From Candidatus Omnitrophota bacterium (lineage in GTDB: Bacteria > Omnitrophota > Gorgyraeia > Zapsychrales > Fredricksoniimonadaceae), in assembly GCA_903860135.1 (NCBI GenBank), contig CAIOPG010000006.1, positions 100,275-164,274 of the forward strand: a DNA stretch of 64,000 bases, in the 5' to 3' direction. Of this stretch, positions 36,059 to 62,500 are shown piece by piece. A program made the translations under genes and the position numbers. Position 1 is the first letter of the stretch. Each line of letters starts with the position of its first letter. The notes below the pieces were generated by a model that was not told where the DNA came from, searched no databases, and was given only the letters and a program-made list of their open reading frames with translations.

Positions 36059-36069
36059 CAACTTAGAAT

Positions 36070-36216: not shown

Positions 36217-36254
36217 GCGTAATTTAATATATGAAAAGATCGGGACATTAGGTT

Positions 36255-39972: not shown

Positions 39973-40940
39973 TCATTTCATGGAATATCACCAAGGCCTG
40001 CCAGTTGAAATGCCTGCATTGTTACCGGGATGCCGGCACGAAAGAAGCCGATGAATTGACTCCGGCGGAGGGTAAGGAGTTGATCGACGAGATCGCTCTC
40101 GCCGGGTTCAAGATCCTCATTATCAGCGGCGGAGAGCCGTTGATGCGCCCGGATGTGTATGACCTGATCGCGCATGCCAGGTCTAAAGGGTTGCGTCCGG
40201 TATTAGGGACCAACGGGTGCATGATCGACCGCACGGTGGCACGGAAGCTCAAGGAAGCCGGGCTCACGCGGGCCGGGATCAGCCTCGACAGCACCGATGC
40301 GGCGGTGCATGACAACTTCCGCCAGTATCCGGGCGCCTGGCAAGAAAGCCTGGCTGGGATGAAAGCGTGCCTCGATGAAGGCCTGGATTTTCAGATCCAC
40401 ACCACGGTGACAACGTATAATTATCAGAATGTCGAGAAGATCACGGACCTGGCGGTTACCCTTGGCGCCAAGGCGCATCATATCTTTTTTCTTGTCCCGA
40501 CGGGCAGAGGCAAAGACCTTGAAGCCCTGATCCCCTCGCATGCATATCAGGCGCTCTTGAAAAAGATCATGCACAAACAGCGTGCGGTCTCCATCGAATT
40601 AAAACCGGTGTGCGCGCCGCAATTTGTACCCTTGGCACAGGACATGCATCAGCCGACACGGTTTCAGCGCGGCTGTCTGGCGGGGGTCAGCTATTGCTGT
40701 ATCCTGCCCAATGGGGATGTGCATCCATGTCCCTATTTCCCGATCAAGGTTGGGAACACGCGCGCACAGAAATTCAGCGCGCTGTGGAAAAGCCATCCGC
40801 TGTTCAAGGAGTTGCGCGACGGGGAGTATAGCGGTAACTGCGGCGGCTGTCTGCATAAAACGACCTGCGGCGGGTGCCGTGCCCGGGCCTATGCCGCGAC
40901 GGGCAATTACATGGATTTTGACCCGGAGTGCATTTATTAA
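39969..40940 (+). CDS. radical-SAM/SPASM enzyme of the alternative haem pathway (AhbC/AhbD type)
   Basis: ITKACQLKCLHCY motif and a C-terminal Cys cluster (CGGCLHKTTCGGCRARA). Confidence 0.65.
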   Translation: MIISWNITKACQLKCLHCYRDAGTKEADELTPAEGKELIDEIALAGFKILIISGGEPLMRPDVYDLIAHARSKGLRPVLGTNGCMIDRTVARKLKEAGLTRAGISLDSTDAAVHDNFRQYPGAWQESLAGMKACLDEGLDFQIHTTVTTYNYQNVEKITDLAVTLGAKAHHIFFLVPTGRGKDLEALIPSHAYQALLKKIMHKQRAVSIELKPVCAPQFVPLAQDMHQPTRFQRGCLAGVSYCCILPNGDVHPCPYFPIKVGNTRAQKFSALWKSHPLFKELRDGEYSGNCGGCLHKTTCGGCRARAYAATGNYMDFDPECIY

Positions 40941-40966
40941 TTGTGCGTGTTGCTTGAAAATATCAG

Positions 40967-41111
40967 TGTGATCTTTTACCGGTTCTTAAGGCTTGCGGAT
41001 GCCTTGCTGCTCAGACAGCAGAAACAGCTTTTTCTTGAAATACTTTAAGGAAAGCTTGGTTTCTGAACTCGCGACGGCGGCACTCTTCAGCCTTAAACCG
41101 GTAAAAGCTAG
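40967..41111 (+). repeat. copy 2 of the ~146-nt structured intergenic element, upstream of ahbA
   Basis: Same architecture as copy 1. Its outer stem is cttttaccggttcttaaggcttg / cagccttaaaccggtaaaag, with compensatory changes (aag→agg in the 5' arm paired with ctt→cct in the 3' arm) relative to copy 1. Confidence 0.8.
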
Positions 41112-41130
41112 TCGGAAATATGGTTATTAT

Positions 41131-41583
41131 ATGTTGACTATAAAAGATAAGAAATTTCTCAGGAAGCTTCAGACGGATTTCCCGTTGGTGTCCCGGCCTT
41201 TTGCTGTGTTGGCGGCAGAGCAGGGAGTTACCGAGGCGGAGCTGTTGGCTTATTTCAAGGATTTGCGTCAACAAGGTGTCCTGCGTTATATCGCGGTGAT
41301 GTTTGAATTGAAGGCGCTGGGTATTATTTCAAGTTTGATCGGTATGCGCGTCCCTGCGGACAAACTTGATGCGACGGTGGCTATCATCAATGCGTATCCG
41401 AATGTAAGCCATAATTATCTGCGCGAAGGTGAGTACAATGTCTGGTTCACTGTCAGTGCGGCGTCGGAACGCCGTCTTAAATCGATCCTGGCAGATATCC
41501 GCAAGAAGAGCGGTATTAAAGCTATGCTGGACCTAAGGACGCGGCGGGTTTTTAAGAATCAGGCTGTCTTTGAATTGAAATGA
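41131..41583 (+). CDS. siroheme decarboxylase subunit (AhbA/AhbB; NirD/NirL-like Lrp/AsnC fold)
   Basis: About 150 aa, similar to NirDLGH-type subunits. The start is placed after the repeat element; the listed ORF 40993.. reads through the repeat. Confidence 0.7.
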   Translation: MLTIKDKKFLRKLQTDFPLVSRPFAVLAAEQGVTEAELLAYFKDLRQQGVLRYIAVMFELKALGIISSLIGMRVPADKLDATVAIINAYPNVSHNYLREGEYNVWFTVSAASERRLKSILADIRKKSGIKAMLDLRTRRVFKNQAVFELK

Positions 41584-41584
41584 T

Positions 41585-42055
41585 ATGAAAATATCCAAAG
41601 AAATCATCTTTGCCCTTGCGGCGCCATTAAAACTGGTTAAACAACCGTATGCCGCCATCGCCAAAGAATTGGGCATCGACGAAGCGACCCTTTTAACCAA
41701 GATCAGGCAATGCAAGGCTGCGGGCGTTATTCGCCGTGTGGGTGTTGTTCTGGGGCATTTCAAGGCCGGATACACGAGCAATGCGCTGGTCAGCTGGAAT
41801 GTCGCCGAAGCTGATCTTGAGGCTCAGGGCAAACTACTGGCCACGTTTCCTCAAGTTACTCACTGCTATGTGCGTCAGACGTATCCGCAGTGGCCGTACA
41901 GCCTTTATACCATGGTGCACGCGCGGCATGCTAAAGAGCTGGCGGCGACGATCAAGGCCATGGCGCAGCAGTCGGGGATTAAGGATTACACGATCAGGAC
42001 AACGCTCAAGGAATTCAAAAAGATCAAAAGTGATCTGAAAGGGATACTCGCATGA
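41585..42055 (+). CDS. siroheme decarboxylase subunit (AhbA/AhbB paralogue)
   Basis: Paralogous to the preceding gene (...LGIDEATLLTKIRQ...AGVIRRVG...). Confidence 0.7.
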   Translation: MKISKEIIFALAAPLKLVKQPYAAIAKELGIDEATLLTKIRQCKAAGVIRRVGVVLGHFKAGYTSNALVSWNVAEADLEAQGKLLATFPQVTHCYVRQTYPQWPYSLYTMVHARHAKELAATIKAMAQQSGIKDYTIRTTLKEFKKIKSDLKGILA

Positions 42056-43314
42056 AATTTGATCGATCCAGGAAACTTTTTACGGAGGCCTGCCGTTATT
42101 TTCCTGGCGGCGTTAATAGCCCGGTGCGTGCCTTTGGTGCGGTGGGCGGGAGCCCTCTTTTTATCAAGAAAGGCGCCGGGTCGAAGATCACCGATGTTGA
42201 CGGGAATACGTACATTGATTATGTGATGAGCTGGGGGGCGTTGATCCTCGGGCATGCGGTTCCGGAAGTTGTAGCGGCTGTCAGTAAGGCGGCGGCTTTA
42301 GGGTCAAGTTTCGGCGCGCCGACTGAGTCCGAATCGAAGCTGGCAACGGTTATTTCACACGCAATACCGTCGATGGAGCGCCTGCGTTTGGTTAGTTCGG
42401 GGACGGAAGCCACGATGAGCGCGATCCGTCTAAGCCGCGGGTTCACGGGGCGCGACAAGATCATCAAATTTGATGGCTGTTATCACGGGCATGGCGACAG
42501 CTTGCTCGTCAAGGCTGGTTCGGGGGCGGCCACGCAGGGCATCCCCGGGAGCGCGGGGGTGACAGCGGCCCTCAGCCGGGATACGCTGGTATGCCCTTAC
42601 AATGATATAAGTGCGTTGCGTAAGATTGTCGCCCAGCATGCGGCGTCGATCGCCTGTGTGATCATCGAGCCGGTGGCGGCGAATATGGGCGTTGTGATGC
42701 CCGATGCGGCTTTTCTTCAGGCAGTGCGCGACCTTACGGCCAGGCATGGCATTGTCCTGATCTATGATGAGGTCATCACAGGCTTCCGTTTTCATTTTGG
42801 CGGGGTGCAGACCCTGCAGAAGATCAAGCCTGACCTGACCTGCCTCGGCAAGATCATCGGCGGGGGGCTTCCGATCGCCGCTTACGGCGGGAAGAAAGAG
42901 ATCATGGATTGCGTGGCACCTTTAGGCCAGGTGTATCAGGCCGGGACGCTGTCGGGCAATCCCGTTGCTGTGGCGGCGGGACTGGCGATGCTGAAAGTGC
43001 TCAAGACCAAAGATTATGCCGCGCTCGATCACAAGGCCGCGCGCCTGTGTGAAGGGTTGAAAGAAAGTTTCACACGCAAGCATATGCCAGTCACGATCAA
43101 TCGCGCCGGGTCATTGTTCACTGTTTTCTTTACACCTCAGCCCGTCACAGATTTTACGACGGCAAGAACGTCTGATACGAAGAAATATGCGGCGTATTTC
43201 AAGGCCATGCTTCATGCGGGCATCAATTTGCCGCCGTCGCAGTTCGAGGCGCAGTTCCTTTCTTTTAGCCACACGGATAAAGATGTGGCCTTGACGCTCA
43301 GGGCGGTAAAATAA
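42052..43314 (+). CDS. hemL: glutamate-1-semialdehyde 2,1-aminomutase
   Basis: ...YFPGGVNSPVRAF... and the PLP Lys region. Confidence 0.9.
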   Translation: MKFDRSRKLFTEACRYFPGGVNSPVRAFGAVGGSPLFIKKGAGSKITDVDGNTYIDYVMSWGALILGHAVPEVVAAVSKAAALGSSFGAPTESESKLATVISHAIPSMERLRLVSSGTEATMSAIRLSRGFTGRDKIIKFDGCYHGHGDSLLVKAGSGAATQGIPGSAGVTAALSRDTLVCPYNDISALRKIVAQHAASIACVIIEPVAANMGVVMPDAAFLQAVRDLTARHGIVLIYDEVITGFRFHFGGVQTLQKIKPDLTCLGKIIGGGLPIAAYGGKKEIMDCVAPLGQVYQAGTLSGNPVAVAAGLAMLKVLKTKDYAALDHKAARLCEGLKESFTRKHMPVTINRAGSLFTVFFTPQPVTDFTTARTSDTKKYAAYFKAMLHAGINLPPSQFEAQFLSFSHTDKDVALTLRAVK

Positions 43315-44796
43315 ATGGGCAAAGATCAACTGAAAGCGTCGCAGGTGCGACCTTTTTTCGTGTGTCTTTTATTTGCCATTTGCTTTCTTTTGCGGCTCTA
43401 TCAGCTGGGTTATCATGACCTCTGGTTTGACGAGGTCGCTTCGGCAGGTTATGCCCAGCACCCGTGGGGTAACTGGAATGCGCCATTTTATTGGATATTC
43501 TTGCATGGGTGGGTGAAATTCTTCGGATTTTCTGAATTTGTTTTACGGTTTCCTTCTCTCATTTTCAGTCTTTCTTCCGTTGTTTTTTTATTCTTTCTTG
43601 GTAAAGAGTTGTTCAACGCGCGGGTTGGTTTTTGTGCGGCTTTGTTCATGGGTTTGTCGCCTTTTCATTTATGGTATGCGCAAGAGGCCAGGGATTACAC
43701 TATGGTCTTGTGCCTAGGCGTCTGCGCTTCCTTATTGTTGGCCAAGGCATTGAAGCAGGACCGTAGTATATTCTGGATATCTTTCGCGCTAGTTTCCATG
43801 ATCGGGCTGTATACAAATTATTTCTATGCTGTTCTGCTGATGGCACAGGGCGGTGTGGTCTTGGCTTTTAAAAGGCATCAGATAAAGTTCTTGGAAGTGC
43901 TTTCTTTCCTGATTCCAGTGCTGGCCTTTTCTTATTACCTGCCACATTTCTTTGAGAAGTTCATTTATATTGCGCATGGGTTTTGGGTTCCCCGGCCATC
44001 GCCTGCATCGTTACTAATAACGTTGGAGAATTTTTTGCTGGGATATAATGGCTGGCCGGCATTATATTTGGTAGCGGACATCGTTATAGGCATCTTGTTC
44101 GTTGCAGCCTGCTGGAATGCTTATCGGCAGAAGTTGTACCAGAATTTTCTGGTATGCCTGGTCTTATTTTTGATCCCTATTGGTTGCATTTTTATCTTTT
44201 CCATAAACTTTTTCTCCATTTACCTGGATCGCGCGTTTCTGATCTTCACGCCTTTCTTTTATCTTGTTTTATCTGTAGGCCTGGGTTATGCCTCGCGCTG
44301 GTTCAGGTTCTTGGCGGTGGCTGTTCTGGCGGGATTGATGTTAACGTCGGTCGCGGCATTCTTTAAGAATCATATGGTGATGCCTTTTGAACATCATGTG
44401 GGGGTCTGGCTCAAGAAACCGATTAAGCCTGTAGGGGTTTTTCTGAAGGCGCATCTGGCGTCGGATGATGCCTTGGCGTTTACAAATAATTCTATTCTAC
44501 GATCTTTGTATTTCTACCATCATCAAGGTCTACCTTTATATTATTATTTATTTGATCCAAGGTTCCCCGAGACCGACTGGCAGCGGCCGATCCAGGAAAG
44601 TCCTCGTTGCATTCCGTATTACAAGGCAAGCGGGTTGAAATTCAATAAATTATGGGTGGTTTTCTCGGACTGGCCGCGGGACAAAACCCTTGGCCCAAGT
44701 TCGCAATCGACCAAGGACTGGCTGGACAAGAATATGGTTCAGGAATTTTCCAGGGAATTTGATGGACTGATGGTGGTACGCTATGCGCGCCCATAA
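43315..44796 (+). CDS. GT-C glycosyltransferase (GT39/ArnT/PMT-like polytopic membrane protein)
   Basis: About 11 TMs, with the DE motif in the first loop (HDLWFDEVASA) typical of GT39/GT83. Confidence 0.7.
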   Translation: MGKDQLKASQVRPFFVCLLFAICFLLRLYQLGYHDLWFDEVASAGYAQHPWGNWNAPFYWIFLHGWVKFFGFSEFVLRFPSLIFSLSSVVFLFFLGKELFNARVGFCAALFMGLSPFHLWYAQEARDYTMVLCLGVCASLLLAKALKQDRSIFWISFALVSMIGLYTNYFYAVLLMAQGGVVLAFKRHQIKFLEVLSFLIPVLAFSYYLPHFFEKFIYIAHGFWVPRPSPASLLITLENFLLGYNGWPALYLVADIVIGILFVAACWNAYRQKLYQNFLVCLVLFLIPIGCIFIFSINFFSIYLDRAFLIFTPFFYLVLSVGLGYASRWFRFLAVAVLAGLMLTSVAAFFKNHMVMPFEHHVGVWLKKPIKPVGVFLKAHLASDDALAFTNNSILRSLYFYHHQGLPLYYYLFDPRFPETDWQRPIQESPRCIPYYKASGLKFNKLWVVFSDWPRDKTLGPSSQSTKDWLDKNMVQEFSREFDGLMVVRYARP

Positions 44797-46009
44797 CGCT
44801 AGCGATCATCGCACCCCGGCCACGCGGCTGTTGTGCGCGATAATTGGCGAAGTTGTGACCCAAAAGAAGGACGAGCGTATGCCCGCCCTGATCGGGGCAT
44901 CGACGATCGATTGGGATGTTTTTAAGCGCGGTCTTGGGTATCATGGCCTAGGGCCGTTGGCGTACATGAGCTTGAAAGCGTATGCGGACACGTTGCCGCC
45001 TGATATCGTCGGTACGTTAAAGGCAACATATTATGCTTCCTTAAAACAGGTCGTGGCTTTTGAGGAGCATTTCTTTATTTTGGAAGCGGCATGTGCTCAA
45101 CAAGGACTGTTGATGGTACCGTTCAAGGGCATGGCCATCGTTGAGGATCTTTACGCGGAAAATCCTGTCCGGCCAAGTTGTGACATTGATGTTTTGGTGC
45201 ACCGGGAGGATATTGATCAGGTTATCACGGTCATGGAGGGGCTGGGATTTGAAAAAGAATTATCCGGGCTGAAAGAGTCTTACTGGAGGACACAGTATCA
45301 TATTGCTCTTCGGAAGAATGTCCATGGCCGGCGGCCGTTAGTGGTCGAGGTGCATTGGGATATTGATTATCCGCGCAAAGGGCGGCCTTTATTACCGGAG
45401 AAGTTTAACCGGTTAAGGGAGATCGCCGTCGGCGGGCGAAAGGTCAAGATTCTTTCGGTGGAAGATACGTTCTTTGGCTTAGCTTTGCACCAGCGGCGGT
45501 TTGGTCAGGTCCTCAACCTTAAGGATGTATGTGACATGGGCCGGTTGCTGAAGAAATACGCGGCTACTTTTGACTGGGATTATATTATTCGGGAGAGCAG
45601 GAGTTCTAGGTTGCGCGCCACGGTTTATTTCGCGCTTTTTCAGGTGAAATTCTTCTTTGACATTCATGTTCCTGAGCAGGTGATGGCGGTTTTGGCTGTG
45701 CCATCTTTCCAGAAAAAGATGATCGAGCGTTTTATAAGAAGGAATACCTTTTGGGATGATCCGGATTATAATTTAAAAGACCGTTTTCTAAAGGTGCATT
45801 TTTTGTTATATGATGACATTTGGGAGCCGGCAGTTTATATTCTGGTGATCCCTATTGAACAGTTTGCCAAGTTCTATGAACTCGATCCATATACTAGGAA
45901 GACAAGGTGGCTGTATCACTTCAGTTTCTTTTATGTGATATTCCGCCGAGTTCTGGTGTATTGGAGAAGATTATGGAAATGGTTTGACCGGAGGTGTCAT
46001 GAAGAATAA
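44783..46009 (+). CDS. nucleotidyltransferase-family protein of the type found in RiPP clusters (PF14907-like), putative
   Basis: The hG[S/G]-type region ...MVPFKGMAIVEDLY...CDIDVLVH resembles a minimal nucleotidyltransferase (GS...D.D). The true start is probably the internal MPALIG (~44879). Confidence 0.45.
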   Translation: MRAHNASDHRTPATRLLCAIIGEVVTQKKDERMPALIGASTIDWDVFKRGLGYHGLGPLAYMSLKAYADTLPPDIVGTLKATYYASLKQVVAFEEHFFILEAACAQQGLLMVPFKGMAIVEDLYAENPVRPSCDIDVLVHREDIDQVITVMEGLGFEKELSGLKESYWRTQYHIALRKNVHGRRPLVVEVHWDIDYPRKGRPLLPEKFNRLREIAVGGRKVKILSVEDTFFGLALHQRRFGQVLNLKDVCDMGRLLKKYAATFDWDYIIRESRSSRLRATVYFALFQVKFFFDIHVPEQVMAVLAVPSFQKKMIERFIRRNTFWDDPDYNLKDRFLKVHFLLYDDIWEPAVYILVIPIEQFAKFYELDPYTRKTRWLYHFSFFYVIFRRVLVYWRRLWKWFDRRCHEE

Positions 46010-47126
46010 TTTTTCGATCAATCAGCCTTTAGCGGCATTCTCGTTATGGCAGAAGTTTAAGGCGGAAAGAAGGTTGTATGCATTTGATCTGGAGATCACG
46101 GCCCGGTGCAATAACAACTGCCGTCACTGTTATGTGAATTATCCGGCGGATTGTAACGAGATCCGACAGAAGGAGCTCTCTCTAGATCAGATCAAGCACC
46201 TCGTTGACCAAGCGGTTGATATGGGTGCGTTGTGGTGCCTGATCACAGGCGGAGAGCCACTGTTGCGCCCGGACTTCTTTGATATTTATTTTTACATCAA
46301 AAGCAAAGGACTTTTGGTTTCGGTCTTTACTAACGCGACCATGATCACAGAGGAGCATGTGGCCTTCTTCAAGAAATATCCGCCACGCGAAATTGAGGTG
46401 ACGGTTTATGGCGTGACCTGCGCGACCTATGAGGATGTCAGCCGGGTCAAGGGCTCGTTTAGCCGGTTTATGCGTGGGGTGGATCTGTTGATGACAGGTG
46501 GCGTCAAGGTGCGTTTCAAAGCCATGGCCTTGCGTTCTAATGTTGATGGAATGCAGGCGATTGCTACTTTCTGCCGTGAAAGGACCCGCGATTATTTCCG
46601 GTTCGACCCATCCCTGCATCTGCGTTGTGATGGGGATATTCAACGGAATGAAGAGATCCGTTCCGAGCGATTGTCGCCCGCCGAGTTTGTGGCCCTTGAA
46701 AAAGCGGATGCGGAACGTTTCGGAGCACTCGAGAAGAACTGCGATAAACTCATTGTGCCTGCGCTGGAGCATCTTGCCTGCCATCATCTTTTCCATTGCG
46801 GGTCAGGCAATGGGAGTTTTTATGTCAGTTATGACGGCTTTTTCCGCTTGTGTTCGTCTTTGTGCCAGAAAGATTGTGTTTATGACTTAAAGAAAGGTTC
46901 GCTGAAAGAAGCCTGGGAGTGCTTTGTGCCACAAGTGCGCGCGATGACATCCGACAACAAGGAGTTCCTGGAAAAGTGCCGCGTGTGCCCGATCATCAAT
47001 CTCTGTCTCTGGTGCCCAGCGCACGCGCATCTTGAGACCGGTCGGCTCGACCAGCCAGTCCAATTTTTTTGCGATATAGCGCATGCACGGCAAGCTTCGC
47101 TTGAGGCGAATAATAAAGTTAGTTAA
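45984..47126 (+). CDS. radical-SAM/SPASM peptide-modifying enzyme (paralogue 1)
   Basis: CNNNCRHCY cluster, and a C-terminal SPASM-like Cys cluster (CGSGNGS...CRVCPIINLCLWCPAHA). Confidence 0.8.
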   Translation: MTGGVMKNNFSINQPLAAFSLWQKFKAERRLYAFDLEITARCNNNCRHCYVNYPADCNEIRQKELSLDQIKHLVDQAVDMGALWCLITGGEPLLRPDFFDIYFYIKSKGLLVSVFTNATMITEEHVAFFKKYPPREIEVTVYGVTCATYEDVSRVKGSFSRFMRGVDLLMTGGVKVRFKAMALRSNVDGMQAIATFCRERTRDYFRFDPSLHLRCDGDIQRNEEIRSERLSPAEFVALEKADAERFGALEKNCDKLIVPALEHLACHHLFHCGSGNGSFYVSYDGFFRLCSSLCQKDCVYDLKKGSLKEAWECFVPQVRAMTSDNKEFLEKCRVCPIINLCLWCPAHAHLETGRLDQPVQFFCDIAHARQASLEANNKVS

Positions 47127-47157
47127 ATGGGCGTCATAAATCTACGGAGGGTTCATA

Positions 47158-47342
47158 TGACTGAGAAAATGGATAAGAAATGGACTACGCCGCAGTTGAT
47201 TCAGTTGGTTAGAGGTGGCGAGGAGGAGGGTGTGTTGGGGGTGTGCAAATACTATATGACTGGTGGTCCGATTTATAGAGATTGTGTAACATATGAGGCC
47301 GATATGTCTGCTTATACTTGTTTTGCATATTCACCGTCGTAA
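47158..47342 (+). CDS. candidate RiPP precursor peptide (61 aa; 71 aa if started at 47127)
   Basis: RBS GGAGGG lies 5 nt upstream of the ATG at 47158. The sequence is MTEKMDKKWTTPQLIQLVRGGEEEGVLGVCKYYMTGGPIYRDCVTYEADMSAYTCFAYSPS, with 3 Cys, 6 aromatic residues, a GG motif and a C-terminal Ser. It lies between the rSAM gene and the ABC exporter and is followed by an AT-rich spacer. Confidence 0.4.
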
Positions 47343-47491
47343 GACATGCGAATTAATAGTGTCAGTACTCCTCAAACTGATGAAGTAAAACAAGTTAAAT
47401 TGTAATTTGTTCAATACGGTCACTGATAATATTGACAGACAACTTGGAGTTGTTTGTAGCATTAGATTAACTAAACCAACTTAAGACAACG

Positions 47492-49270
47492 ATGAACCCT
47501 CCTTGGAATCTTTTAAAAGAATTCTATCATTTCCTTGTCCCTTATTACCGCAAACAGGGTGTCGCCTTGGTGCTGACACTTGCCGGTGTCCTGCTCAGCC
47601 TTGTCAATCCTTACTTGACTAAATTGATGGTGGATCGCGCGATCATGGGCAAAGACGTGAAGATGTTCTTGATCCTCGGTGGGATCGGTGCTGGGGTATT
47701 CCTGCTGAACAGTCTTGTCAACGCGGGGGCGGAATACATCACCAAGGATATCAGGATCAGGCTTGGCTTTGATCTTAACAGGAAAATATTCACGCACCTT
47801 CAGCGGCTCCCCTTGGGTTTCTTCAAGATCAGGTCTACTGGGGAACATATGTTCAAGGTCAACTATGATGTGGACCGGGTGGCGGATCTGTTGAGTTTTA
47901 TTCCCCGCGACGCGGTCAATATTTTCCCTAAATTCCTGTGTACGTTTGTGATCATTGCTTGGCTGGATGGGTCGATGGCACTTGTTGCCCTGCTGGTACT
48001 GCCATTGGTATTTTGGCCTGTCAACCGGATGACCCAACGGATGCAGGAGGTGTACCGCGCCATGGTTGACAGATCCCAGGACATTTTCAGGAAGATGGGA
48101 GAAATATTCTCGCACATATACTTGGCTAAGGTATTCGGGAAGGAGCGGGCACAGACACGCGGATACCTGCGCGCGGTGATCGCCCGTATGCGCTGGGAAT
48201 TCAGTAACATTCGCCTTGAGGTGCTTAATACGCTCATGGCCGGCAGCCTCAATCGCGCGATCATCGCTGTTCTTACTTTGTTCGGTGCCTGGCAGGTGAT
48301 GCAAGGCAAGGTGACGCTGGGGACATTGGCCGCGGTGCTGGTCTATCTGGCGGAACTGGTCTTGTTGCAGAGTAGTGTTGTGTTCCTTTTTCAGCGGGTG
48401 AGTATGGGGCTCATTTGTTGTGGCCGGCTGGACGCCTTGTTGAACCAACCGCCGCAAGAGCTTCACGCGGACGGGGCAAAAGTCAACATGAGCGATGCCG
48501 TGGATATTCGGTTTAAAAATGTGTCATTCGGGTATCGTCCCTCTGAGATCATCTTACGGGATACGGCGTTTGAAATACCCGGCGGCTGGGTGGCCCTGGC
48601 TGGCGCTTCGGGCTGCGGGAAGACGACCATCATCAATCTTCTGCTGGGGTTTTATCAGCCGTTCCAGGGGCAGATATTCGTCGGCGGCCATGATATGCGT
48701 GCCATCGACTTGGCTTTTTGGAGAAACCAGCTTGGCGTCGTGACACAAGAACCTTTCTTGTGGGATGACACGGTGGCGAATAATTTGAAATATGCCTGCC
48801 CGCACGCATCTGATGATGAGATGGCTCGCGTGGCTCAGATGACCGGGGTGAACAATATGATTCGGTCACTGCCCCACGGCTATAACACGCTCATTGGCGA
48901 GCGGGGGTGCCTGCTTTCCGAAGGGCAGAAGCAACGCATCGCTCTGGCCAGGGCCTTGCTCAAAAGGCCGAAGATCCTTATCCTGGACGAAGCCATGTCG
49001 TCCATCGATGCTTTAAGTGAAGAGCAGATCATCGCGGTTCTACGCGCGATCCCGGAGGTCACGCAGGTCTTGCTTGTATCGCATCGCTGGTCGACAGTGT
49101 CCAGTTGTGATCATGTGCTATATTTTAACGGTGACCGGCCGGTAATAACCGGTCAGCCTGCGGATCTTATGCAGCATAACGCGGCGTTTCGTGCCCTTTT
49201 CGCCCGTCAGATGAACAATGATCGGGAACATATTCATGCTATACCAGCACTGGAGAATGAACATGCCTGA
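47492..49270 (+). CDS. ABC exporter, fused permease + ATPase (no C39 peptidase domain)
   Basis: Six TMs, then Walker A (GASGCGKTT), the signature LSEGQKQRIALARA and Walker B (ILILDEA). Confidence 0.85.
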   Translation: MNPPWNLLKEFYHFLVPYYRKQGVALVLTLAGVLLSLVNPYLTKLMVDRAIMGKDVKMFLILGGIGAGVFLLNSLVNAGAEYITKDIRIRLGFDLNRKIFTHLQRLPLGFFKIRSTGEHMFKVNYDVDRVADLLSFIPRDAVNIFPKFLCTFVIIAWLDGSMALVALLVLPLVFWPVNRMTQRMQEVYRAMVDRSQDIFRKMGEIFSHIYLAKVFGKERAQTRGYLRAVIARMRWEFSNIRLEVLNTLMAGSLNRAIIAVLTLFGAWQVMQGKVTLGTLAAVLVYLAELVLLQSSVVFLFQRVSMGLICCGRLDALLNQPPQELHADGAKVNMSDAVDIRFKNVSFGYRPSEIILRDTAFEIPGGWVALAGASGCGKTTIINLLLGFYQPFQGQIFVGGHDMRAIDLAFWRNQLGVVTQEPFLWDDTVANNLKYACPHASDDEMARVAQMTGVNNMIRSLPHGYNTLIGERGCLLSEGQKQRIALARALLKRPKILILDEAMSSIDALSEEQIIAVLRAIPEVTQVLLVSHRWSTVSSCDHVLYFNGDRPVITGQPADLMQHNAAFRALFARQMNNDREHIHAIPALENEHA

Positions 49271-50264
49271 GGTTTATTTACCATCTCGAAAAGTTTCTGA
49301 TTTACCGCAGATACCGCTCGATGGTCGCATGGAATTCATGGAAAATTGCGGTTCGTGTGCGTCGCATAGAGAACACTGCCGATTTTATCAGATCGCCGGT
49401 CTATCGATCCGGGTGGAATCTGACTTGCCGATGTCCGACCAGACCTTTCATTTGAAATTTAAGCATTTTGAGATCAAAGTCCCTAAGGCTGACATGATCA
49501 CGATCAGGCATCATTTTAGTTTGCCGAACCTTGATGGGAAAGACCTTGGCCGTGAGGTTTATCGTAAGGTACCGTGGGCTATTTACAGAAAGGGAAATTC
49601 CTGGATATATCTTGGTATTGCACCGACGGAAGGAGACAATTCTCTGCACCGGGTTGTTCGCTGTAATGATGATCATACGCAGGTGACGATCTATAATGAT
49701 AAAATGACAGAGGATGAATTTCTGAAAGGTGAACAACATTCATTGACCTTTTTTCCGACGGACCAGATTCTGATAGCGCGTGTCCTGGCTGACAGGAATG
49801 CTTTTTACCTGCATTCCTGCGGTGTCAGGTTCCACGGTCAGGGTCTTCTTTTTGCCGGGCACTCCGAGGCTGGCAAGTCCACCACGGCCACTATGTTAAA
49901 AGACCGGGCTGACATCCTTTGTGATGACCGGATGATCATTCGGGGAACCGGCACGGACCAGGGATTCGATATCCATGGGACATGGAGCCATGGGGATGTG
50001 CCGGATGTGTCGGCGGGATCCGCGCCACTACGGGCGATCATGTTTCTGGAAAAATCCGATGCTAACAGGCTTATCCGTCTCCATGACAAGAAGGAAATCA
50101 TACGCAGGATGCTCGAATGCCTCATCAGGCCTTTTGTGACCGCGGATTGGTGGCATAAAACCCTGTCGGTCGTGGAAAGGGTCGTTGATAATGTACCCTG
50201 TTATGTGCTCAAATTCGACCGGAGCGGCAAAGTGGTAGACCTGTTGCAGAAGGAGTTGCAATGA
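49263..50264 (+). CDS. HPr-kinase C-terminal-domain-like P-loop protein (HprK-related kinase), putative peptide kinase
   Basis: P-loop LLFAGHSEAGKSTTATML followed by ...DDRMIIR.. resembles the HprK/P C-terminal kinase fold. The start was chosen at the ATG at 49263 (an 8-nt overlap with the ABC stop). Confidence 0.55.
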   Translation: MPEVYLPSRKVSDLPQIPLDGRMEFMENCGSCASHREHCRFYQIAGLSIRVESDLPMSDQTFHLKFKHFEIKVPKADMITIRHHFSLPNLDGKDLGREVYRKVPWAIYRKGNSWIYLGIAPTEGDNSLHRVVRCNDDHTQVTIYNDKMTEDEFLKGEQHSLTFFPTDQILIARVLADRNAFYLHSCGVRFHGQGLLFAGHSEAGKSTTATMLKDRADILCDDRMIIRGTGTDQGFDIHGTWSHGDVPDVSAGSAPLRAIMFLEKSDANRLIRLHDKKEIIRRMLECLIRPFVTADWWHKTLSVVERVVDNVPCYVLKFDRSGKVVDLLQKELQ

Positions 50265-51439
50265 CCGCTGAGGCTTATCTTGTTCGACGGAATGTTAACC
50301 AACCGTCTTCAGGAAAAATATCACCGCCGCGTCTTTTAGGACGATTGGATATGATCCTTACCGAGCGTTGCAATAATAATTGTGTTCATTGCTACATAAA
50401 TCTTCCATCCGGCGACCTAGATGCTAGGAAGAAAGAATTATCGACGGATGAAATAAAGAATATCCTCAAAGAAGCCGTAACGTTAGGGTGCATGATGGTG
50501 CGTTTCTCTGGTGGTGAGCCGCTGTTACGCGAGGATTTTGGGGAACTCTATCTTTTTGCCCGAAGGCAGGGGCTTAAGGTGGCGATCTTCACCAATGCCA
50601 CGTGCATCACGCCAGACCTTGCCGATCTCTTTGCGCGTATTCCACCCAAAGAAAAGATCGAGATCACGGTGTATGGGATGAAGCAAGAATCTTACGAGGC
50701 GGTGACGTGCGTGCCAGGCTCTTTTGCCAAAGCCTGGCGGGGGATTCATTTACTTCAGGAAAGAAAAGTTCCTTTTGTGGTCAAAGGGGCATTGTTGCCG
50801 GATAATAAGGATGATGTCGATGAATTTGAGGCCTGGGCCGCGACCATCCCATGGATGGAAAAACTGCCTGGGTATTCCATGTTCTTTGACCTGCGATGCC
50901 GCCGGGAGGAAGGTAAAAATCGCAGTATAATGGCGGTAAGAGCGACGCCGGAGAACGGGGTTAAATTCATGACGCGTAGAAAAGAAGAATTTCTAAAAGA
51001 CCAAAAGCAATTCTGCTCCCAATTCATGCGCCCTTCTGGCGACAAACTTTTTTCGTGTGGTTCGGGCAAAGGGGGTGGGTGCGTTGATGCGTATGGCGGG
51101 TTTCAGATGTGCATGATGCTCCTGCATCCTGATACGGTCTATGATCTTAAACAGGGCACGCTTCAAGATGCGCTTGAAAGATCTTTTCCGGCTTGCCGTA
51201 ACACGACGGCGGTGAATAAGGATTATCTGCAACGGTGTGCCCGGTGTTTTCTTAAAGGCTTGTGTGAACAGTGCCCGGCGAAGTCATGGGCCGAGCACGG
51301 CACCCTCGATACGCCCGTTGAATATTTCTGCCAGGTAGCACACGCCCAGGCGCGCTTCCTTGGATTGATCGGTGAAGGTGAGAAGGCATGGGAAGTAGTG
51401 GACGCGGAGCAAAGGATTGAGAAATTCGTTAATAGTTAA
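50261..51439 (+). CDS. radical-SAM/SPASM peptide-modifying enzyme (paralogue 2)
   Basis: CNNNCVHCY cluster, a C-terminal Cys cluster (CGSGKGGGC...CARCFLKGLCEQCPAKS), and clear paralogy to 45984..47126. Confidence 0.8.
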   Translation: MTAEAYLVRRNVNQPSSGKISPPRLLGRLDMILTERCNNNCVHCYINLPSGDLDARKKELSTDEIKNILKEAVTLGCMMVRFSGGEPLLREDFGELYLFARRQGLKVAIFTNATCITPDLADLFARIPPKEKIEITVYGMKQESYEAVTCVPGSFAKAWRGIHLLQERKVPFVVKGALLPDNKDDVDEFEAWAATIPWMEKLPGYSMFFDLRCRREEGKNRSIMAVRATPENGVKFMTRRKEEFLKDQKQFCSQFMRPSGDKLFSCGSGKGGGCVDAYGGFQMCMMLLHPDTVYDLKQGTLQDALERSFPACRNTTAVNKDYLQRCARCFLKGLCEQCPAKSWAEHGTLDTPVEYFCQVAHAQARFLGLIGEGEKAWEVVDAEQRIEKFVNS

Positions 51440-51448
51440 GGAGGTCGG

Positions 51449-51760
51449 ATGCAGAAACACGTTATATTAGAAAGTATTTACAAGCCTTCGGAAGATGTGG
51501 TGGCGCGGGATGTCCAAGGCGAATTTGTCATTATACCTATCACGAGCGGTATCGGTGACGGTCAGGATGACATTTTTACAATGAACGACACTGGTCGCGT
51601 TGTCTGGGATCACCTCGACGGCAAAAGGACGCTGAAAGAAATAGGGCTGGAACTTTCCGGAAACTACGACGCCGCACCCGGACAAGTCGAACAGGATGTT
51701 GCCGGTATTGTGCAGGAATTGTTGAATAAGAATATTGTAGTAGAAGTCCCTGCGGTTTGA
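51449..51760 (+). CDS. PqqD-family protein (stand-alone RiPP recognition element)
   Basis: About 100 aa; ...GEFVIIPI...FTMNDTGRVVWDHLDGKRTLKEIGLELS...DVAGIVQELLNKNIV matches the PqqD/RRE pattern. Confidence 0.65.
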   Translation: MQKHVILESIYKPSEDVVARDVQGEFVIIPITSGIGDGQDDIFTMNDTGRVVWDHLDGKRTLKEIGLELSGNYDAAPGQVEQDVAGIVQELLNKNIVVEVPAV

Positions 51761-51819
51761 TCGGATAGTGTCAAAAGTTTTATGAAGAATGTGCATAAAA
51801 AAGGATTTTGATATGAATT

Positions 51820-51852
51820 CCCCTCCCCGCTTCAGCGTGGGAGGGAGTTTTA
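51820..51852 (+). terminator. putative intrinsic terminator after pqqD-like gene
   Basis: GC-rich stem ccctccccgct / agcgtgggaggg with a 2-nt loop, followed by aGTTTTaa. Confidence 0.45.
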
Positions 51853-51929
51853 AGCTATTTAGATATAAGGGTTTTGCGAGTTGGAAGCTAGAACTTTTGA
51901 CAGAACACGCCTAAAAGCGAGGGTATCTT

Positions 51930-53027
51930 ATGCGTTGCTGTAACCGTCATTATCAGGATTTCTGCGGGCATATTTATAAATATGCCCCGGCCTGTGAGGC
52001 GATCAACAGCAAGGACGCGGTCAATGCGGCGTGTTCTTTAAGAAATCAAAGTGATACCGGTTTGGTTGTGCGATTTTTTGACTCTGGGCGAGAGATCGTC
52101 GACAAGAACAAGATGGTTTTCCATCCGCAGGGGATATGCATGTACCCGTGCATACGGCCCGGGGACAGGCTTCACATAGAATCGCGCTCGATAGAACAGG
52201 TCAAGATTGGGGATATTGCGGTGTATCGCCGGTTCAACCGGCTGTTTGCCCACCGTGTTATTGGCGCAGGCGAAAAGCTTGGTGCCCATTATATCATCAC
52301 CCGCCCTGATACGGCACCGCGCGGTGATGATGGTCCGACGTTCGATGAGGATATTCTGGGGGTTGTGGTGCGCCTTGAACGCAAGGGAAAGATACTGGGT
52401 ATTGTTCGCAAAACATACCCGCTGTTGCATAGAATACTCCTCGATATTCACGTTCTTCCGTATCGTTTGGCCGGTCAGCTTTGGGCTTGGCTTTCTTTTC
52501 ATTTAAGCCTTATTCAACAGTATTCATTCTACCGGGTCTTCGCGCAATACTTGTTTATGAACAAGAAGGTTGAATTTTCTCTGCAGGTCCCGATCAATGC
52601 CAGGCCGGACAGCCGGCTTTTTCAGAAACTTTCCCGTGAAGGATTGCTCGACCGGTTGAGCGCTGAAGAACCTGTTGCCAAATGGTCCCTGCACGTGGCA
52701 GTGAAGGCGAGATCTGTTGGGTATGTGTCATTCGTCCGTAAGCCAGAGTCCTGCCTTCACCGTGGCTGGTGGGTGTATGAAGCGCATATTGATCCTTTAT
52801 ATCGAGGGACAGCGGTTGAAACGAGATTGCTCCAGGAAGTTGTTCTTATCCTCGGTCGTGCCGGGATCAAAGCAGTTTCTGTCACCGCCTTCGGGGATGC
52901 GATAAAGGATCGGCTGTTTTTCAAGAATATGGGATTTAACGAAGTTTCTTCGTATCGAGATGTTTTGTTAAAAGGTCAATGCTACGGGGCTGTGGAACGG
53001 GTGATCATGAAAATGTATATTTGTTGA
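51930..53027 (+). CDS. S26/S24-like peptidase domain (apparent Cys/His variant) fused to a GNAT-like acetyltransferase domain, putative
   Basis: Signal-peptidase-like boxes: GICMYPCIRPGD (box B, with Cys at the Ser position), IGDIAVYRR (box C), LFAHRVIGAGE (box D, with His at the Lys position). The C-terminal ...YRGTAVETRLLQEVVLILGRAGIKAVSV...FFKNMGF resembles GNAT motif A. Confidence 0.4.
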   Translation: MRCCNRHYQDFCGHIYKYAPACEAINSKDAVNAACSLRNQSDTGLVVRFFDSGREIVDKNKMVFHPQGICMYPCIRPGDRLHIESRSIEQVKIGDIAVYRRFNRLFAHRVIGAGEKLGAHYIITRPDTAPRGDDGPTFDEDILGVVVRLERKGKILGIVRKTYPLLHRILLDIHVLPYRLAGQLWAWLSFHLSLIQQYSFYRVFAQYLFMNKKVEFSLQVPINARPDSRLFQKLSREGLLDRLSAEEPVAKWSLHVAVKARSVGYVSFVRKPESCLHRGWWVYEAHIDPLYRGTAVETRLLQEVVLILGRAGIKAVSVTAFGDAIKDRLFFKNMGFNEVSSYRDVLLKGQCYGAVERVIMKMYIC

Positions 53028-53125: not shown

Positions 53126-53704
53126 ATGGAAAGAACGGATGAAGAACTGATCCGCGCGTATGCCTCCGGCGAACCGGACGCTGTGGGGCTGTTGTTTGCG
53201 CGGCACAAGGGGAGCATTTTCAATTTTGCCTTGCGGCTTATTGGCAACAGGGCAGATGCCGAAGATGTGACCAGCGATGTCTTTCTTCAGCTCTTTAACA
53301 GGCGCTATCAGGCAACCCCGCAGGCCAAATTCACCACCTGGCTTTTTACGGTGGCGCGCAATGCCTGTCTGTCCAGGATAAGGACCCGCAATATGCTGGG
53401 GTCTTTCTGGTTCAAGCGGGACGGCGACGATGGTTTTGAGGAACAGGAGATAGCTGATCCTGCGGGCAATCAAGGTGAGGCTTTAAGGAATAAGGAAAAA
53501 GCCAAGATGGTGAAGCAGGCCGTTATGGCCTTACCTCCGATGCAGAAAGAAGCGTTGATCCTGCGTGAGTATTGCAACAAGGATTATGCCGAGATCGCGG
53601 CGATCCTGGGCTGTTCCTTTGATAATGTTAAAGTGCTTATATTCCGCGGCCGCGAGCGTTTGCGCGTAAGCCTGGCCGCCTGGATGAAGGAGGAAACCCT
53701 ATGA
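53126..53704 (+). CDS. ECF (group IV) sigma-70 factor
   Basis: Region 2 (...DVTSDVFLQLF...) and region 4 (...EALILREYCNKDYAEIAAILGCSFDNVKVLIFRGRERLR). Confidence 0.85.
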   Translation: MERTDEELIRAYASGEPDAVGLLFARHKGSIFNFALRLIGNRADAEDVTSDVFLQLFNRRYQATPQAKFTTWLFTVARNACLSRIRTRNMLGSFWFKRDGDDGFEEQEIADPAGNQGEALRNKEKAKMVKQAVMALPPMQKEALILREYCNKDYAEIAAILGCSFDNVKVLIFRGRERLRVSLAAWMKEETL

Positions 53705-55899
53705 ACGAGCAAGACAAGCTCCTCATATCCGCTTACGCCGACGGCGCGCTCTCTCCAGACGATGCCGCTCGTGCCGAAAGCCTCCTGGCCGGTGATCGTG
53801 CGTGCCGGGCCTACCTCGAGGACATCCGTAAGATTTCCATGTCGCTGTCGGTGGTGAAGGACGAACAGCTCTCTCCCGATGCTGAGATCCAGATCATCCA
53901 ACGCTTGCACAAGGAGACAACGTATATGAAACCCAATACATGGAAGACAGCAGCAACCGTGTGCGTGACCATTGTGGTCGCGTTTTTGGTAATGCAGAAT
54001 TATGCACACAGGACATTGCAGGGACGATTAAAGGATGCGAATGTACTGTTTCGTGACAGTATTGGATCAACGTTGAAGTATGAACCGTATTATACAAATA
54101 CAAGTGCCGCTTCGGATAAGTCTTCTGTAAAGCATGCGGAAGGGTATGTTGATTCGACTGTCTATTCAAGCGGTCTAATGCGCGATACTATGTCCCGTAA
54201 CGCAAAGTCTATTGGTACTGATGCTAAAGATGCTTATGGGGGTGTTGCGCCGGGGGTTGATACATCTGTCTATTTCGAAGCGCCTGTAGAAGGGGCTCTC
54301 ATCTTAAAATCTTCTTTCGCTGGTTTTGGAGGGGAGAATGATAAAGTAAGTAATGATATCGGCGATCAGTATTCTACCGCTACTTACGCTAATTATCAGA
54401 GGGGCGTCAGTGCGCTTGATCATCAACAATATACGCCTTCCTACACCGAAGAATACCCCTTCTTCAATGAGAATGAATTCTTGACCACCGACCAGAACCC
54501 GTTGTCCACATTCTCGACAGATGTTGACACGGCCTCTTACAGCAATCTGCGGCGTTATCTGACCCGGAATCAGGTGCCGCCACAGGATGCGGTGCGGCTC
54601 GAGGAGATGATCAATTACTTCTCTTATAATTATCCCAATCCCAAAAATGGGGAACCGTTCTCGATCACGACGGACCTGGCGGTGTGCCCATGGGCCCAGA
54701 AACATTTGCTGTTGCGCATTGGGCTAAAGGGGCGGGTGCCAGACGAAGAAACGCTGCCGGCGAGCAATCTGGTGTTTCTCATTGACGTGTCCGGCTCCAT
54801 GCAAGATGGCAACAAACTGCCCCTTCTTAAAGAAGGTTTCAAGATGATGGTGCGTCAATTGCGCCCTGAAGACCGGGTATCGATCGTTGTTTATGCGGGT
54901 TATGCCGGAAAGGTGCTCGACACCACGTCGGGGTATGACAAGGACGCGATCATTAATGCCATTGATAATCTGCAAGCCGGTGGTTCGACAGCCGGCAATG
55001 AAGGGATTCAGCTGGCGTATCGGACGGCCCGGGAAAGCTTTATCCGGGGCGGGAACAATCGCGTGATCCTGGCCACCGACGGGGATTTTAACGTGGGCTT
55101 GTCGGATATCGGTGCCTTGACGCGCATGATCGAGGATAAACGCCGCGAAGGTGTTTTTCTGACGATATTGGGCGTGGGCAACGGGAATTATAAGGATGAC
55201 CGTTTGCAGGCACTGGCAGATAAAGGCAACGGGAATTATTTCTACCTTGATTCTATCCGCGAAGCTCAGAAAGTCCTGGTCCATGAATTGGGGTCCACTT
55301 TATTCACGATCGCCAAGGACGTGAAGATCCAGGTGGAATTTAATCCGTCGCAGGTCAAGGCCTATCGCTTGCTGGGTTATGAGAAACGCATCATGGCCAA
55401 GCAGGATTTCAATAATGACGCCAAGGATGCCGGCGAGATCGGGGCCGGGCATACGGTCACCGCCTTGTATGAACTGGTGCCCCCCGGTGTTGATGATGTG
55501 CCTGTGAGTGTGGATGATCTCAAATATGCCCGCACCAGGCCGTCATTCGGTGCGGAAGTTTTGACAGTAAAATTGCGTTATAAGGAACCGGACGGGAATG
55601 TGAGCAAGCTTATTACCAAAGGTGTTGGCAAGTCCTGGTTGCAGCTGGAACCATCGGGCGATTTCGCCTGGTCTGCCGCCGTGGCCGAATTCGGGATGCT
55701 GATCAAGGCTTCTTCGAGCCGGGCCAGGGCGTCGTTCGATCATGTCCTTAAAGCCGCCAGGGCAGCCAAAGGAGATGACAGATCCGGCCAGCGCCAGGAG
55801 TTCATCGACATGGTTGAAACCGCCCGGGATATTGTCCCTGAAAGTAATGGGCGGATCAATTTCAAGAGTGAAAAGCGAGAAGAGCGCCGGGAGGATTAG
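53701..55899 (+). CDS. anti-sigma factor (N-terminal zinc-finger-like anti-sigma domain, one TM) with periplasmic VWA domain
   Basis: N-terminal ...LISAYADGALSPDD... anti-sigma motif, a TM (AATVCVTIVVAFLV), a VWA MIDAS motif (LVFLIDVSGSM), and a 4-nt overlap with the sigma gene. Confidence 0.7.
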   Translation: MNEQDKLLISAYADGALSPDDAARAESLLAGDRACRAYLEDIRKISMSLSVVKDEQLSPDAEIQIIQRLHKETTYMKPNTWKTAATVCVTIVVAFLVMQNYAHRTLQGRLKDANVLFRDSIGSTLKYEPYYTNTSAASDKSSVKHAEGYVDSTVYSSGLMRDTMSRNAKSIGTDAKDAYGGVAPGVDTSVYFEAPVEGALILKSSFAGFGGENDKVSNDIGDQYSTATYANYQRGVSALDHQQYTPSYTEEYPFFNENEFLTTDQNPLSTFSTDVDTASYSNLRRYLTRNQVPPQDAVRLEEMINYFSYNYPNPKNGEPFSITTDLAVCPWAQKHLLLRIGLKGRVPDEETLPASNLVFLIDVSGSMQDGNKLPLLKEGFKMMVRQLRPEDRVSIVVYAGYAGKVLDTTSGYDKDAIINAIDNLQAGGSTAGNEGIQLAYRTARESFIRGGNNRVILATDGDFNVGLSDIGALTRMIEDKRREGVFLTILGVGNGNYKDDRLQALADKGNGNYFYLDSIREAQKVLVHELGSTLFTIAKDVKIQVEFNPSQVKAYRLLGYEKRIMAKQDFNNDAKDAGEIGAGHTVTALYELVPPGVDDVPVSVDDLKYARTRPSFGAEVLTVKLRYKEPDGNVSKLITKGVGKSWLQLEPSGDFAWSAAVAEFGMLIKASSSRARASFDHVLKAARAAKGDDRSGQRQEFIDMVETARDIVPESNGRINFKSEKREERRED

Positions 55900-57352: not shown

Positions 57353-57354
57353 CC

Positions 57355-59417: not shown

Positions 59418-59419
59418 TT

Positions 59420-60668: not shown

Positions 60669-62484
<1,816 letters not shown>

Positions 62485-62500
<16 letters not shown>

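Follow-up and report, generated by a model that had tools for sequence, protein, structure and literature searches.

Linear polyphosphorylated peptides (LPPs) of Bacillota (Popov et al., Nat Commun 2026; PMC13381572) are encoded by gene sets that comprise a precursor with the motif YxxPxVLxHQxIxFETxxS, the kinase LppK, the recognition element LppB, the peptidase LppS, an MsbA-like pump, and the NTP-transferase LppN (PMC13381572). Specifically, the HprK-like LppK polyphosphorylates Ser3 of the core, and LppS, a signal peptidase I (SpI) of the archaeal type, removes the leader by cleaving after Thr and requires the RRE, the recognition element of peptides that are made on ribosomes and modified after translation (RiPPs) (PMC13381572). 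RREs of both lasso-peptide and LPP systems bind a [W/Y]xxPxL motif, in which Tyr or Trp at the first position of [Y/W]xxP sets their specificity; LPPs and paeninodins are stated to be restricted to Bacillota, and no radical S-adenosylmethionine (rSAM) enzymes are mentioned (PMC13381572). Kinases of lasso-peptide clusters act on the linear precursor, which they phosphorylate at its conserved C-terminal Ser, and in the case of pseudomycoidin, PsmN, annotated as a nucleotidyltransferase, puts hexoses on the phosphoserine (PMC9266682). Here, we describe a related locus in a stretch of 64,000 nucleotides from a Candidatus Omnitrophota bacterium (contig CAIOPG010000006.1; hereafter the window), which encodes a peptide of 61 residues at 47157-47342 of the + strand. 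It is probable, in our assessment, that this peptide is the precursor of a RiPP pathway encoded by about 44783-53027, including the mechanism proposed below.

The locus is best described as a recognition and tailoring module of the lasso/LPP type joined to rSAM/SPASM maturases, with a large, unannotated family of precursors as its substrates. Each of the six gene types that make up the LPP set is present (kinase, RRE, SpI-like protein, NTP-transferase, MsbA-like exporter, and precursor). LPPs are linear and made without crosslinking enzymes, whereas the cluster has two rSAM/SPASM enzymes in addition; of the LPP motif, its precursor keeps the WxxPxL part only, without VLxHQxIxFETxxS or its HQxIxFET portion, and where LPPs have the phosphorylated Ser3 it shows three conserved Cys and a C-terminal Ser that is invariant; its family also occurs outside Bacillota, and its peptidase carries a Cys at the position of the Ser nucleophile. 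The paeninodin and pseudomycoidin lasso systems share with it the WxxPxL leader, the C-terminal Ser, an HprK-like kinase bearing the His-Lys-Asp-Asp motif, an NTP_transf_5-type protein, and an ATP-binding cassette (ABC) exporter (PMC9266682), whereas the window cluster lacks the lasso cyclase and the B2 peptidase, its rSAM/SPASM enzymes are presumed to be class-defining, and its core contains Cys.

The likeness to the SynChlorMet cassette (ScmC, ScmD, ScmE, ScmF) consists of two PqqE-like rSAM/SPASM enzymes, a PqqD homologue, and a ScmC protein. Sactipeptide and ranthipeptide clusters likewise have rSAM/SPASM maturases with CX3CX2C and SPASM motifs, an RRE-dependent leader, and a Cys-containing core; in contrast, the RRE of the window is discrete rather than fused to an rSAM enzyme, the matches to the respective NCBIfam models are sub-threshold, and the kinase, NTP-transferase, and SpI-like genes as well as the C-terminal Ser are foreign to those classes. 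In the searchable, non-subscription literature, we found no paper pairing HprK-type kinases with radical SAM RiPPs and nothing relevant on SynChlorMet or TIGR0424x/PF27840, "ScmC" occurring there only as unrelated acronyms. No Pfam or NCBIfam model and no paper in the same literature describes the precursor family, although an earlier description in subscription-only literature is possible.

The precursor gene

The elements of the precursor gene are the following.

47157-47342, + strand: precursor peptide gene, 61 residues plus stop, encoding MTEKMDKKWTTPQLIQLVRGGEEEGVLGVCKYYMTGGPIYRDCVTYEADMSAYTCFAYSPS
47146-47151, + strand: ribosome-binding site (RBS) GGAGGG, 5 nt before the ATG, read from the sequence
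47157-47249, + strand: leader region, residues 1-31, KKW9-T-T-P12-Q-L14...R19..E23-E24-G-V26-L27-G-V-C30-K31; conservation stops after CK
47256-47325, + strand: hypervariable core segment, residues 34-57, with an 85-nt in-frame diverged counterpart in contig L001
47337-47339, + strand: codon of Ser61, the phosphorylation site predicted from C-terminal Ser/Thr conservation in the family
47343-47491: spacer of 149 nt, 33% GC (window mean 51%), between the precursor gene and the ABC exporter gene

The maximal open reading frame (ORF) around the peptide spans 47127-47342 of the + strand (71 aa). A first-pass annotation, made from the letters alone, had singled out the 61-residue peptide as a candidate precursor. 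Its sequence holds, since reading from 47157 yields the peptide as quoted, identical to the database protein P0001, and so does the RBS; the start codon had been placed one base too far downstream, at 47158, a frame that runs into stop codons, and the ATG is at 47157-47159. The gene begins directly after the first rSAM gene, as described, with 30 nt between the rSAM stop (47126) and the ATG, and the AT-rich spacer ahead of the exporter gene is likewise real. A terminator-like site was searched for in this spacer and none was found, and the spacer fold (z = -1.46) gave no convincing stable structure or attenuator within its 149 nt; the argument that a spacer commonly follows a precursor gene therefore stays purely positional. 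The family profile A2, introduced below, was run on all window ORFs of at least 20 aa and matched the precursor alone (E = 7e-23). Moreover, no second precursor copy or donor cassette was found in the 64-kb window with this hidden Markov model (HMM) or with a blastn-short search using the L001 core.

The peptide has Cys at residues 30, 43, and 55 and ends in Ser61. Its last Cys precedes the terminal Ser by 6 residues (C55-S61, 47319-47339), in the arrangement C-x5-S-COOH, and its leader carries the [W/Y]xxPxL motif as W9-T-T-P12-Q-L14.

A large family of precursor peptides

When 5.8 billion proteins were searched by word index with the precursor as query, two matches were returned, both called as genes in independent assemblies: the identical P0001, which lies on 5 contigs of up to 305 kb, and P0002, a variant of 66 aa that is 68% identical. 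More distant relatives were reached through the HprK-like protein of the cluster, which has 913 homologues, with the Pfam family PF27840 "ScmC" on all 120 listed, and whose alignment A1 was used to retrieve at least 29 genome loci. A phmmer search with the window precursor against the small stop-to-stop ORFs of these loci recovered one, sometimes two, precursor-like ORFs beside the rSAM/ScmC/PqqD genes in Desulfomonilaceae, Eubacteriales, Leptolinea, Desulfobulbaceae, Actinomycetes, Clostridia, and many metagenome-assembled genomes of Acidobacteriota, most with plausible start codons and several with an RBS. A scan of JGI metagenomes with the conserved leader added seven further loci of the same arrangement. 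Small ORFs of shared architecture are found beside rSAM/SPASM, PqqD, and HprK-like genes in more than 25 loci of several phyla. The first-pass annotation had proposed looking for a conserved small ORF in homologous clusters, its absence counting as refutation; such an ORF is present in the same frame type. The matching rSAM/ScmC/PqqD clusters come from Acidobacteriota, Desulfobacterota, Chloroflexota, Clostridia, and many metagenome contigs, with leader, Cys, and terminal Ser conserved.

In the alignment of the precursor ORFs (A2, numbered as the window peptide), P12, E24, V26, L27, C30, C43, and S61 are invariant, and C55 is found in at least 90%, so that the three Cys and the terminal Ser picked out at first pass are conserved family-wide. 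The C-terminal Ser is present in 25 of the 27 locus ORFs that match the A2 profile, against a background of 11% among ORFs of 40-120 aa in the same loci, and the two ORFs without it appear truncated. Two precursor homologues (L033, 433-702, and L037, 1307-1423) have an intact WTTPQLI leader followed by a truncated core (...TQGPT and ...KPEAGY, respectively), which may reflect gene decay or errors in sequencing.

A search with the A2 profile yields 4623 proteins at E <= 0.01, every one annotated as "hypothetical" and free of Pfam domains, and the family amounts to at least 4600 clusters at 90% identity. The 118 best new matches all end in Gly-Ser, have 3-4 Cys, and represent an acidobacterial "Y-type" with the pattern ...YEPPxL..ISLRPEEAVLGHCK....GP.....C....C...GS. 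The core of the Y-type precursors (YEPPxL...SLRPEEAVLGHCK...GS) from acidobacterial loci L013-L022 and L025 is much less variable; the gene order in these loci is PqqD, a single rSAM, precursor, and ScmC, followed by an S24/S26-like domain in frame with giant ORFs (2100-3100 aa) of DUF11 repeats and peptidase C25.

An exhaustive HMMER search of 1.84 billion representatives, in which only the two window-type sequences served as query, gave 166 matches at E <= 1e-3, 145 of them small proteins. All 145 carry WxxPx[L/V/I...], and 139 end in Ser (124) or Thr (15). Among 147 W-type members, the information per position is high from W-3 to W+22 (KKW..P.LIVLVRG.PEE.VL..CK) and falls to about 0.2-0.9 bits past CK, save for a Gly-Pro at +28/+29. 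A Cys occupies position -7 from the C-terminus in 131-132 of the 147 members (C-x5-S-COOH), the Y-type having C-x4-S; that the spacing is fixed is suggestive of a ring at the C-terminus or of an element recognized by the kinase. The window peptide fits the W-type profile at W9, P12, L14, E23, E24, V26, L27, C30, K31, G37, P38, C55, and S61. By its architecture and genomic context, it is a member of a very large unannotated family of predicted RiPP precursors.

The same alignments revise the internal division of the peptide. The "LIQLV patch" noted at first pass is part of the conserved leader motif WxxPxLIxLVR, and the GG motif does occur in the window peptide (RGGEEEG), yet it is not conserved among the relatives, which have RGKPEEG, RNQPEES, or LRPEEAV. 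A leader/core boundary after G25 had been drawn; it is not supported, as strong conservation runs on through V26, L27, C30, and K31, and the leader predicted from the alignment reaches about residue 29-31. Pfam and NCBIfam scans of 17 family members identified no family, with only lasso precursor models appearing at E ~0.1. One of the loci, L008 of a Leptolinea sp., has two precursor genes (6307-6564 and 11308-11538) with very different cores of 3 and 7 Cys.

The proposed biosynthetic cluster

The genes assigned to the pathway besides the precursor are the following.

44783-46009, + strand: NTP_transf_5 nucleotidyltransferase-like protein, LppN/PsmN counterpart (PF14907, 3e-41)
45999-47126, + strand: rSAM/SPASM maturase 1, 375 aa (Pfam Radical_SAM, 1e-22; CX3CX2C and CX2CX5CX2C)
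47492-49270, + strand: MsbA-like ABC exporter, 592 aa (Pfam ABC domains), without an N-terminal peptidase domain
49263-50264, + strand: HprK-like P-loop kinase of the ScmC family, 333 aa (Walker A GHSEAGKS at residue 199; CDDR motif)
50261-51439, + strand: rSAM/SPASM maturase 2, 392 aa (Pfam/NCBIfam scans, Cys motifs)
51449-51760, + strand: PqqD-type RRE, 103 aa (Pfam PqqD, 9e-14)
51930-53027, + strand: archaeal/eukaryotic-type SpI-like protein, candidate leader peptidase (TIGR02228, 8.8e-9)

In related loci, the precursor always adjoins a PqqD-type RRE, one to three rSAM/SPASM enzymes, a ScmC-family kinase, and usually a SpI-like protein. NTP_transf_5 homologues are found in loci L008, L009, L026, L027, L032, L035, and L036.

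The kinase-like protein has the HprK/PEPCK fold. PF27840.1 is found on the database protein P0003, which is 100% identical to the product of 49263-50261; HprK can be aligned with the A1 profile through both the P-loop and the DD motif, and H200, K205, D221, and D222 are invariant in A1. These residues correspond to the His-Lys-Asp-Asp motif reported to be essential in lasso-peptide kinases (PMC9266682). The first-pass annotation had connected the terminal Ser with an HprK-like kinase, and this connection is thereby supported, with an invariant Ser on one side and the fold and motif kept on the other. The kinase of an LPP locus from Paenibacillus cremeus (L029; precursor YSRPVVLKHQPLRFETAQS) matches the window kinase at E = 1.5e-7. 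This locus was recovered through the kinase alignment and is apparently an LPP cluster, judging from its genes: L029 7015-7287 encodes ...YSRPVVLKHQPLRFETAQSWNKG..., which fits the published LPP precursor motif, and the next genes code for a kinase (GHSGAGKST), a PqqD-like protein, an ABC exporter, and an NTP_transf_5 protein. In many ScmC-type kinases, an rSAM/SPASM domain is fused to the N-terminus (L004, L007-L011, L035, and L036; P0006, P0012, P0019, and P0059, among others), which makes three rSAM domains in those clusters, whereas in the window the kinase stands alone beside two rSAM enzymes.

The two rSAM/SPASM maturases are 38% identical to each other. Both have the CX3CX2C motif at residue 37 (CNNNCRHC and CNNNCVHC, respectively) and C-terminal SPASM-like CX2CX5CX2C motifs for auxiliary clusters (CRVCPIINLCLWC and CARCFLKGLCEQC, respectively). 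Their best peptide-maturase matches in NCBIfam are StsB, AlbA, PapB, and WgkB, all below cut-off, and the PqqD protein has sub-threshold matches to lasso PqqD chaperones and to ScmD. The enzymes of the acidobacterial L013 and the Chloroflexota L008 behaved alike in NCBIfam scans, with only sub-threshold generic rSAM and lasso-PqqD matches.

The match of the SpI-like protein to TIGR02228 lies below the cut-off of 51.85 bits. An alignment to SEC11A covers the surroundings of the catalytic Ser and His, and homologues of the protein in 23 related loci have the pattern GxSMxP...HR...GD, all with Ser. A C-terminal GNAT-like region (residues ~260-350) gives faint matches only, and the start codon at 51930 is uncertain.

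A variable core between identical flanks

Contig L001, which encodes P0002 and comes from an independent metagenome, shows 100% identity with the window in two stretches, 45936-47255 (1320 nt) and 47326-47782 (457 nt). Between these flanks, 70 nt of the window face 85 nt in which about half of the positions align, with in-frame indels of 3 and 12 nt. The two proteins share an identical leader plus CKYY, and the Gly-Pro, the Cys positions, and the ending CF[A/T]YSPS are kept, while the rest differs. P0002 lies on three contigs from three assemblies, and gene order and lengths match the window (rSAM 375 aa, peptide, ABC exporter 592 aa, ScmC 333 aa, rSAM 392 aa, PqqD 103 aa). According to the contig records, the identical ScmC protein occurs on 7 contigs, P0001 on 5, and P0002 on 3, which suggests that the contigs with P0002 carry genes for the same enzymes. 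A milder form of the pattern is seen between L035 and L036, which are 94.5% identical overall, with 83-86% in the core and 96% in the leader, and the family-wide drop of conservation after "CK" is the same pattern at a larger scale.

The difference in the core points to the replacement of alleles by recombination, under what the alignments suggest to be diversifying selection on the product. As a source of the variation, a diversity-generating retroelement was weighed and rejected, since the indels (+3 and +12 nt) are in frame and all four bases are affected by changes. Hypervariable core cassettes are known from cyanobactin (patE) and prochlorosin precursors, which likewise have a conserved leader and flanks around a core that differs between near-identical genomes; the window system differs from them in its enzymes and leader, and only two alleles have been seen.

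Proposed pathway and alternative readings

In the pathway proposed by analogy with the lasso and LPP systems, the PqqD protein would bind the WxxPxL motif of the leader and present the peptide. The rSAM/SPASM paralogues would modify the core, most likely through thioether-type cross-links from Cys30, Cys43, and Cys55; this type of bond is favoured because the best peptide-maturase matches, all sub-threshold, are sactipeptide and ranthipeptide enzymes. The HprK-like kinase would (poly)phosphorylate Ser61, and the NTP_transf_5 protein may then decorate or extend the phosphate, as PsmN does in pseudomycoidin. The SpI-like protein would remove the leader, probably just before Cys30 and near V29|C30, a site suggested by the small or aliphatic residues that dominate the two positions before the invariant Cys30 in the 147 W-type members, with LppS cutting after Thr. 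Lastly, the MsbA-like ABC transporter would export the product.

Several observations weigh against this pathway. The rSAM chemistry and the phosphorylation of Ser61 are predictions from sequence, and the cleavage site is putative. Residue 70 of the window SpI-like protein (codon near 52137) is a Cys (GICMYP) in place of the catalytic Ser, with the His (HRV) kept, and this protein is possibly altered or inactive. The three Cys are the same in acidobacterial relatives with one rSAM enzyme, still other clusters contain three such enzymes, and hence enzyme and Cys numbers do not correspond. Separate expression of the precursor is supported by neither a promoter nor a terminator. As LppK acts on core Ser3 of the LPPs, the phosphosite is not transferable by homology alone. 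Finally, the scores against the SynChlorMet models of NCBIfam (TIGR04248-TIGR04251) are far below cut-off (ScmC 34.1/125; ScmD 28.2/100; ScmE 77.8 and 74.1/400; ScmF 82.0 and 80.5/400), which makes the window cluster a relative, not a member, of the SynChlorMet cassette. No precursor is known to have been assigned to that cassette in TIGRFAMs, and the present family is a candidate for it.

Among the alternatives, the one that survives best, and that we nevertheless regard as unlikely, accepts the peptide as a genuine RiPP precursor and holds that its C-terminal Ser is not phosphorylated. Ser61 would instead be needed for an rSAM reaction at the C-terminus, such as a ring between Cys(-7) and the C-terminus or a decarboxylation, or for recognition by the exporter or the peptidase, and the ScmC-like protein would act on another Ser/Thr or serve as an ATP-dependent scaffold. 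The C-x5-S-COOH arrangement, fixed in 131-132 of 147 members, suggests that the last Cys and the C-terminus are structurally linked, the action of LppK on core Ser3 rather than on the C-terminus (PMC13381572) sets a precedent, and the fusion of many ScmC homologues to an rSAM domain suggests a tight coupling with rSAM chemistry. On the other hand, in lasso clusters, the target of kinases with this fold is exactly a conserved Ser at the C-terminus of the linear precursor (PMC9266682), the sole tolerated alternative at this position is Thr (15/145), as expected of a hydroxyl acceptor, and no other Ser/Thr is conserved in the family.

A paeninodin-type lasso precursor is a far weaker proposition, which we hold to be very improbable. 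It would account for the shared leader motif, C-terminal Ser, and accessory genes, for the faint NCBIfam matches of the precursors to lasso models (E ~0.1), and for the lasso chaperones among the best NCBIfam matches of the PqqD protein; however, every lasso-model match is below threshold, and Pfam/NCBIfam scans of the ORFs at 34479-55899 identified neither an asparagine-synthetase-like cyclase nor a transglutaminase-like B2 peptidase. Neither was seen among the conserved genes of related loci, where the rSAM/SPASM pair and a SpI-like peptidase stand instead. The missing cyclase contradicts this reading, and it was rejected.

Just as improbable is a chance ORF or a small protein unrelated to RiPPs, with the L001 core difference as an assembly artefact. 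The peptide is indeed short and matches no curated family, and the available sequences are metagenome-derived only, but its homologues number in the thousands, with one architecture and genomic context across phyla; the variant allele recurs with identical neighbours on three contigs, each from a different one of three assemblies, and its variable segment keeps the frame, the Gly-Pro, the Cys positions, and the CF.YSPS end. The comparative data contradict this reading. Least credible of all is a double-glycine bacteriocin precursor cleaved by the ABC transporter after the leader GG, which the RGG in the leader and the adjacent exporter gene might bring to mind: the GG is not conserved and appears incidental, conservation extends 10 residues beyond it, the 592-aa exporter lacks a C39 peptidase domain, its matches to peptidase-containing ABC models starting only at model position ~140-170, and the cluster encodes a SpI-like protein instead; it was rejected.

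A RiPP precursor phosphorylated at Ser61 and modified by rSAM enzymes is the reading retained here.

Surroundings of the cluster

One further gene adjoins the cluster on its upstream side.

43315-44796, + strand: PMT_2/GT-C-type membrane glycosyltransferase-like protein (PF13231, 8e-14), overlapping the next gene by 14 nt

No homologue of this protein was seen in the other loci, and its membership in the cluster is uncertain. Directly upstream, at 34479-43314 of the + strand, lies a complete-looking operon for siroheme-dependent (alternative) heme biosynthesis, in the order sirohaem-synthase-like, hemC, cobA/hemD, rSAM, hemB, rSAM/SPASM, two NirDL/AhbAB-like genes, and hemL, the last of which ends one base ahead of the start of the PMT_2-like gene. 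Its rSAM genes (37796-38983 and 39969-40940) are AhbC/AhbD-like and unrelated to the RiPP cluster. Directly downstream, at 53126-55899, a gene for an extracytoplasmic function (ECF) sigma factor is followed, with a 4-nt overlap, by an anti-sigma gene (zf-HC2, vWA, YfbK_C); a regulatory tie of this pair to the RiPP genes is possible. Genes of NADH dehydrogenase (complex I) occupy 56385-63942. Throughout the 64 kb, nearly all large ORFs with a domain assignment are on the + strand, and stop and start codons often overlap.

Biological significance

The precursor family assigns a substrate to the widespread "orphan" cassettes of rSAM/SPASM, PqqD, and ScmC genes. One leader/RRE module links lasso peptides, LPPs, and rSAM-modified peptides, showing that a recognition module and its tailoring enzymes have been recombined with different class-defining enzymes. 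Cys30, Cys43, Cys55, the C-x5-Ser-COOH end, and the WxxPxL motif constitute precise predictions that enzymology can test.

A wider proposal is more tentative, and we consider it possible rather than probable. According to it, the peptide would represent an undescribed RiPP class, cross-linked by rSAM enzymes through three Cys, (poly)phosphorylated and possibly glycosylated at its C-terminal Ser, processed by a SpI-like protein, and present in thousands of genomes, especially of Acidobacteriota; it would supply the missing precursor for ScmC-type, SynChlorMet-like cassettes, and its core would be swapped in otherwise clonal DNA. That a hypervariable core sits between identical flanks suggests that the product is under strong diversifying selection, as is typical of peptides employed in antagonism or signalling, and if such a class exists, the core would be a natural combinatorial cassette.

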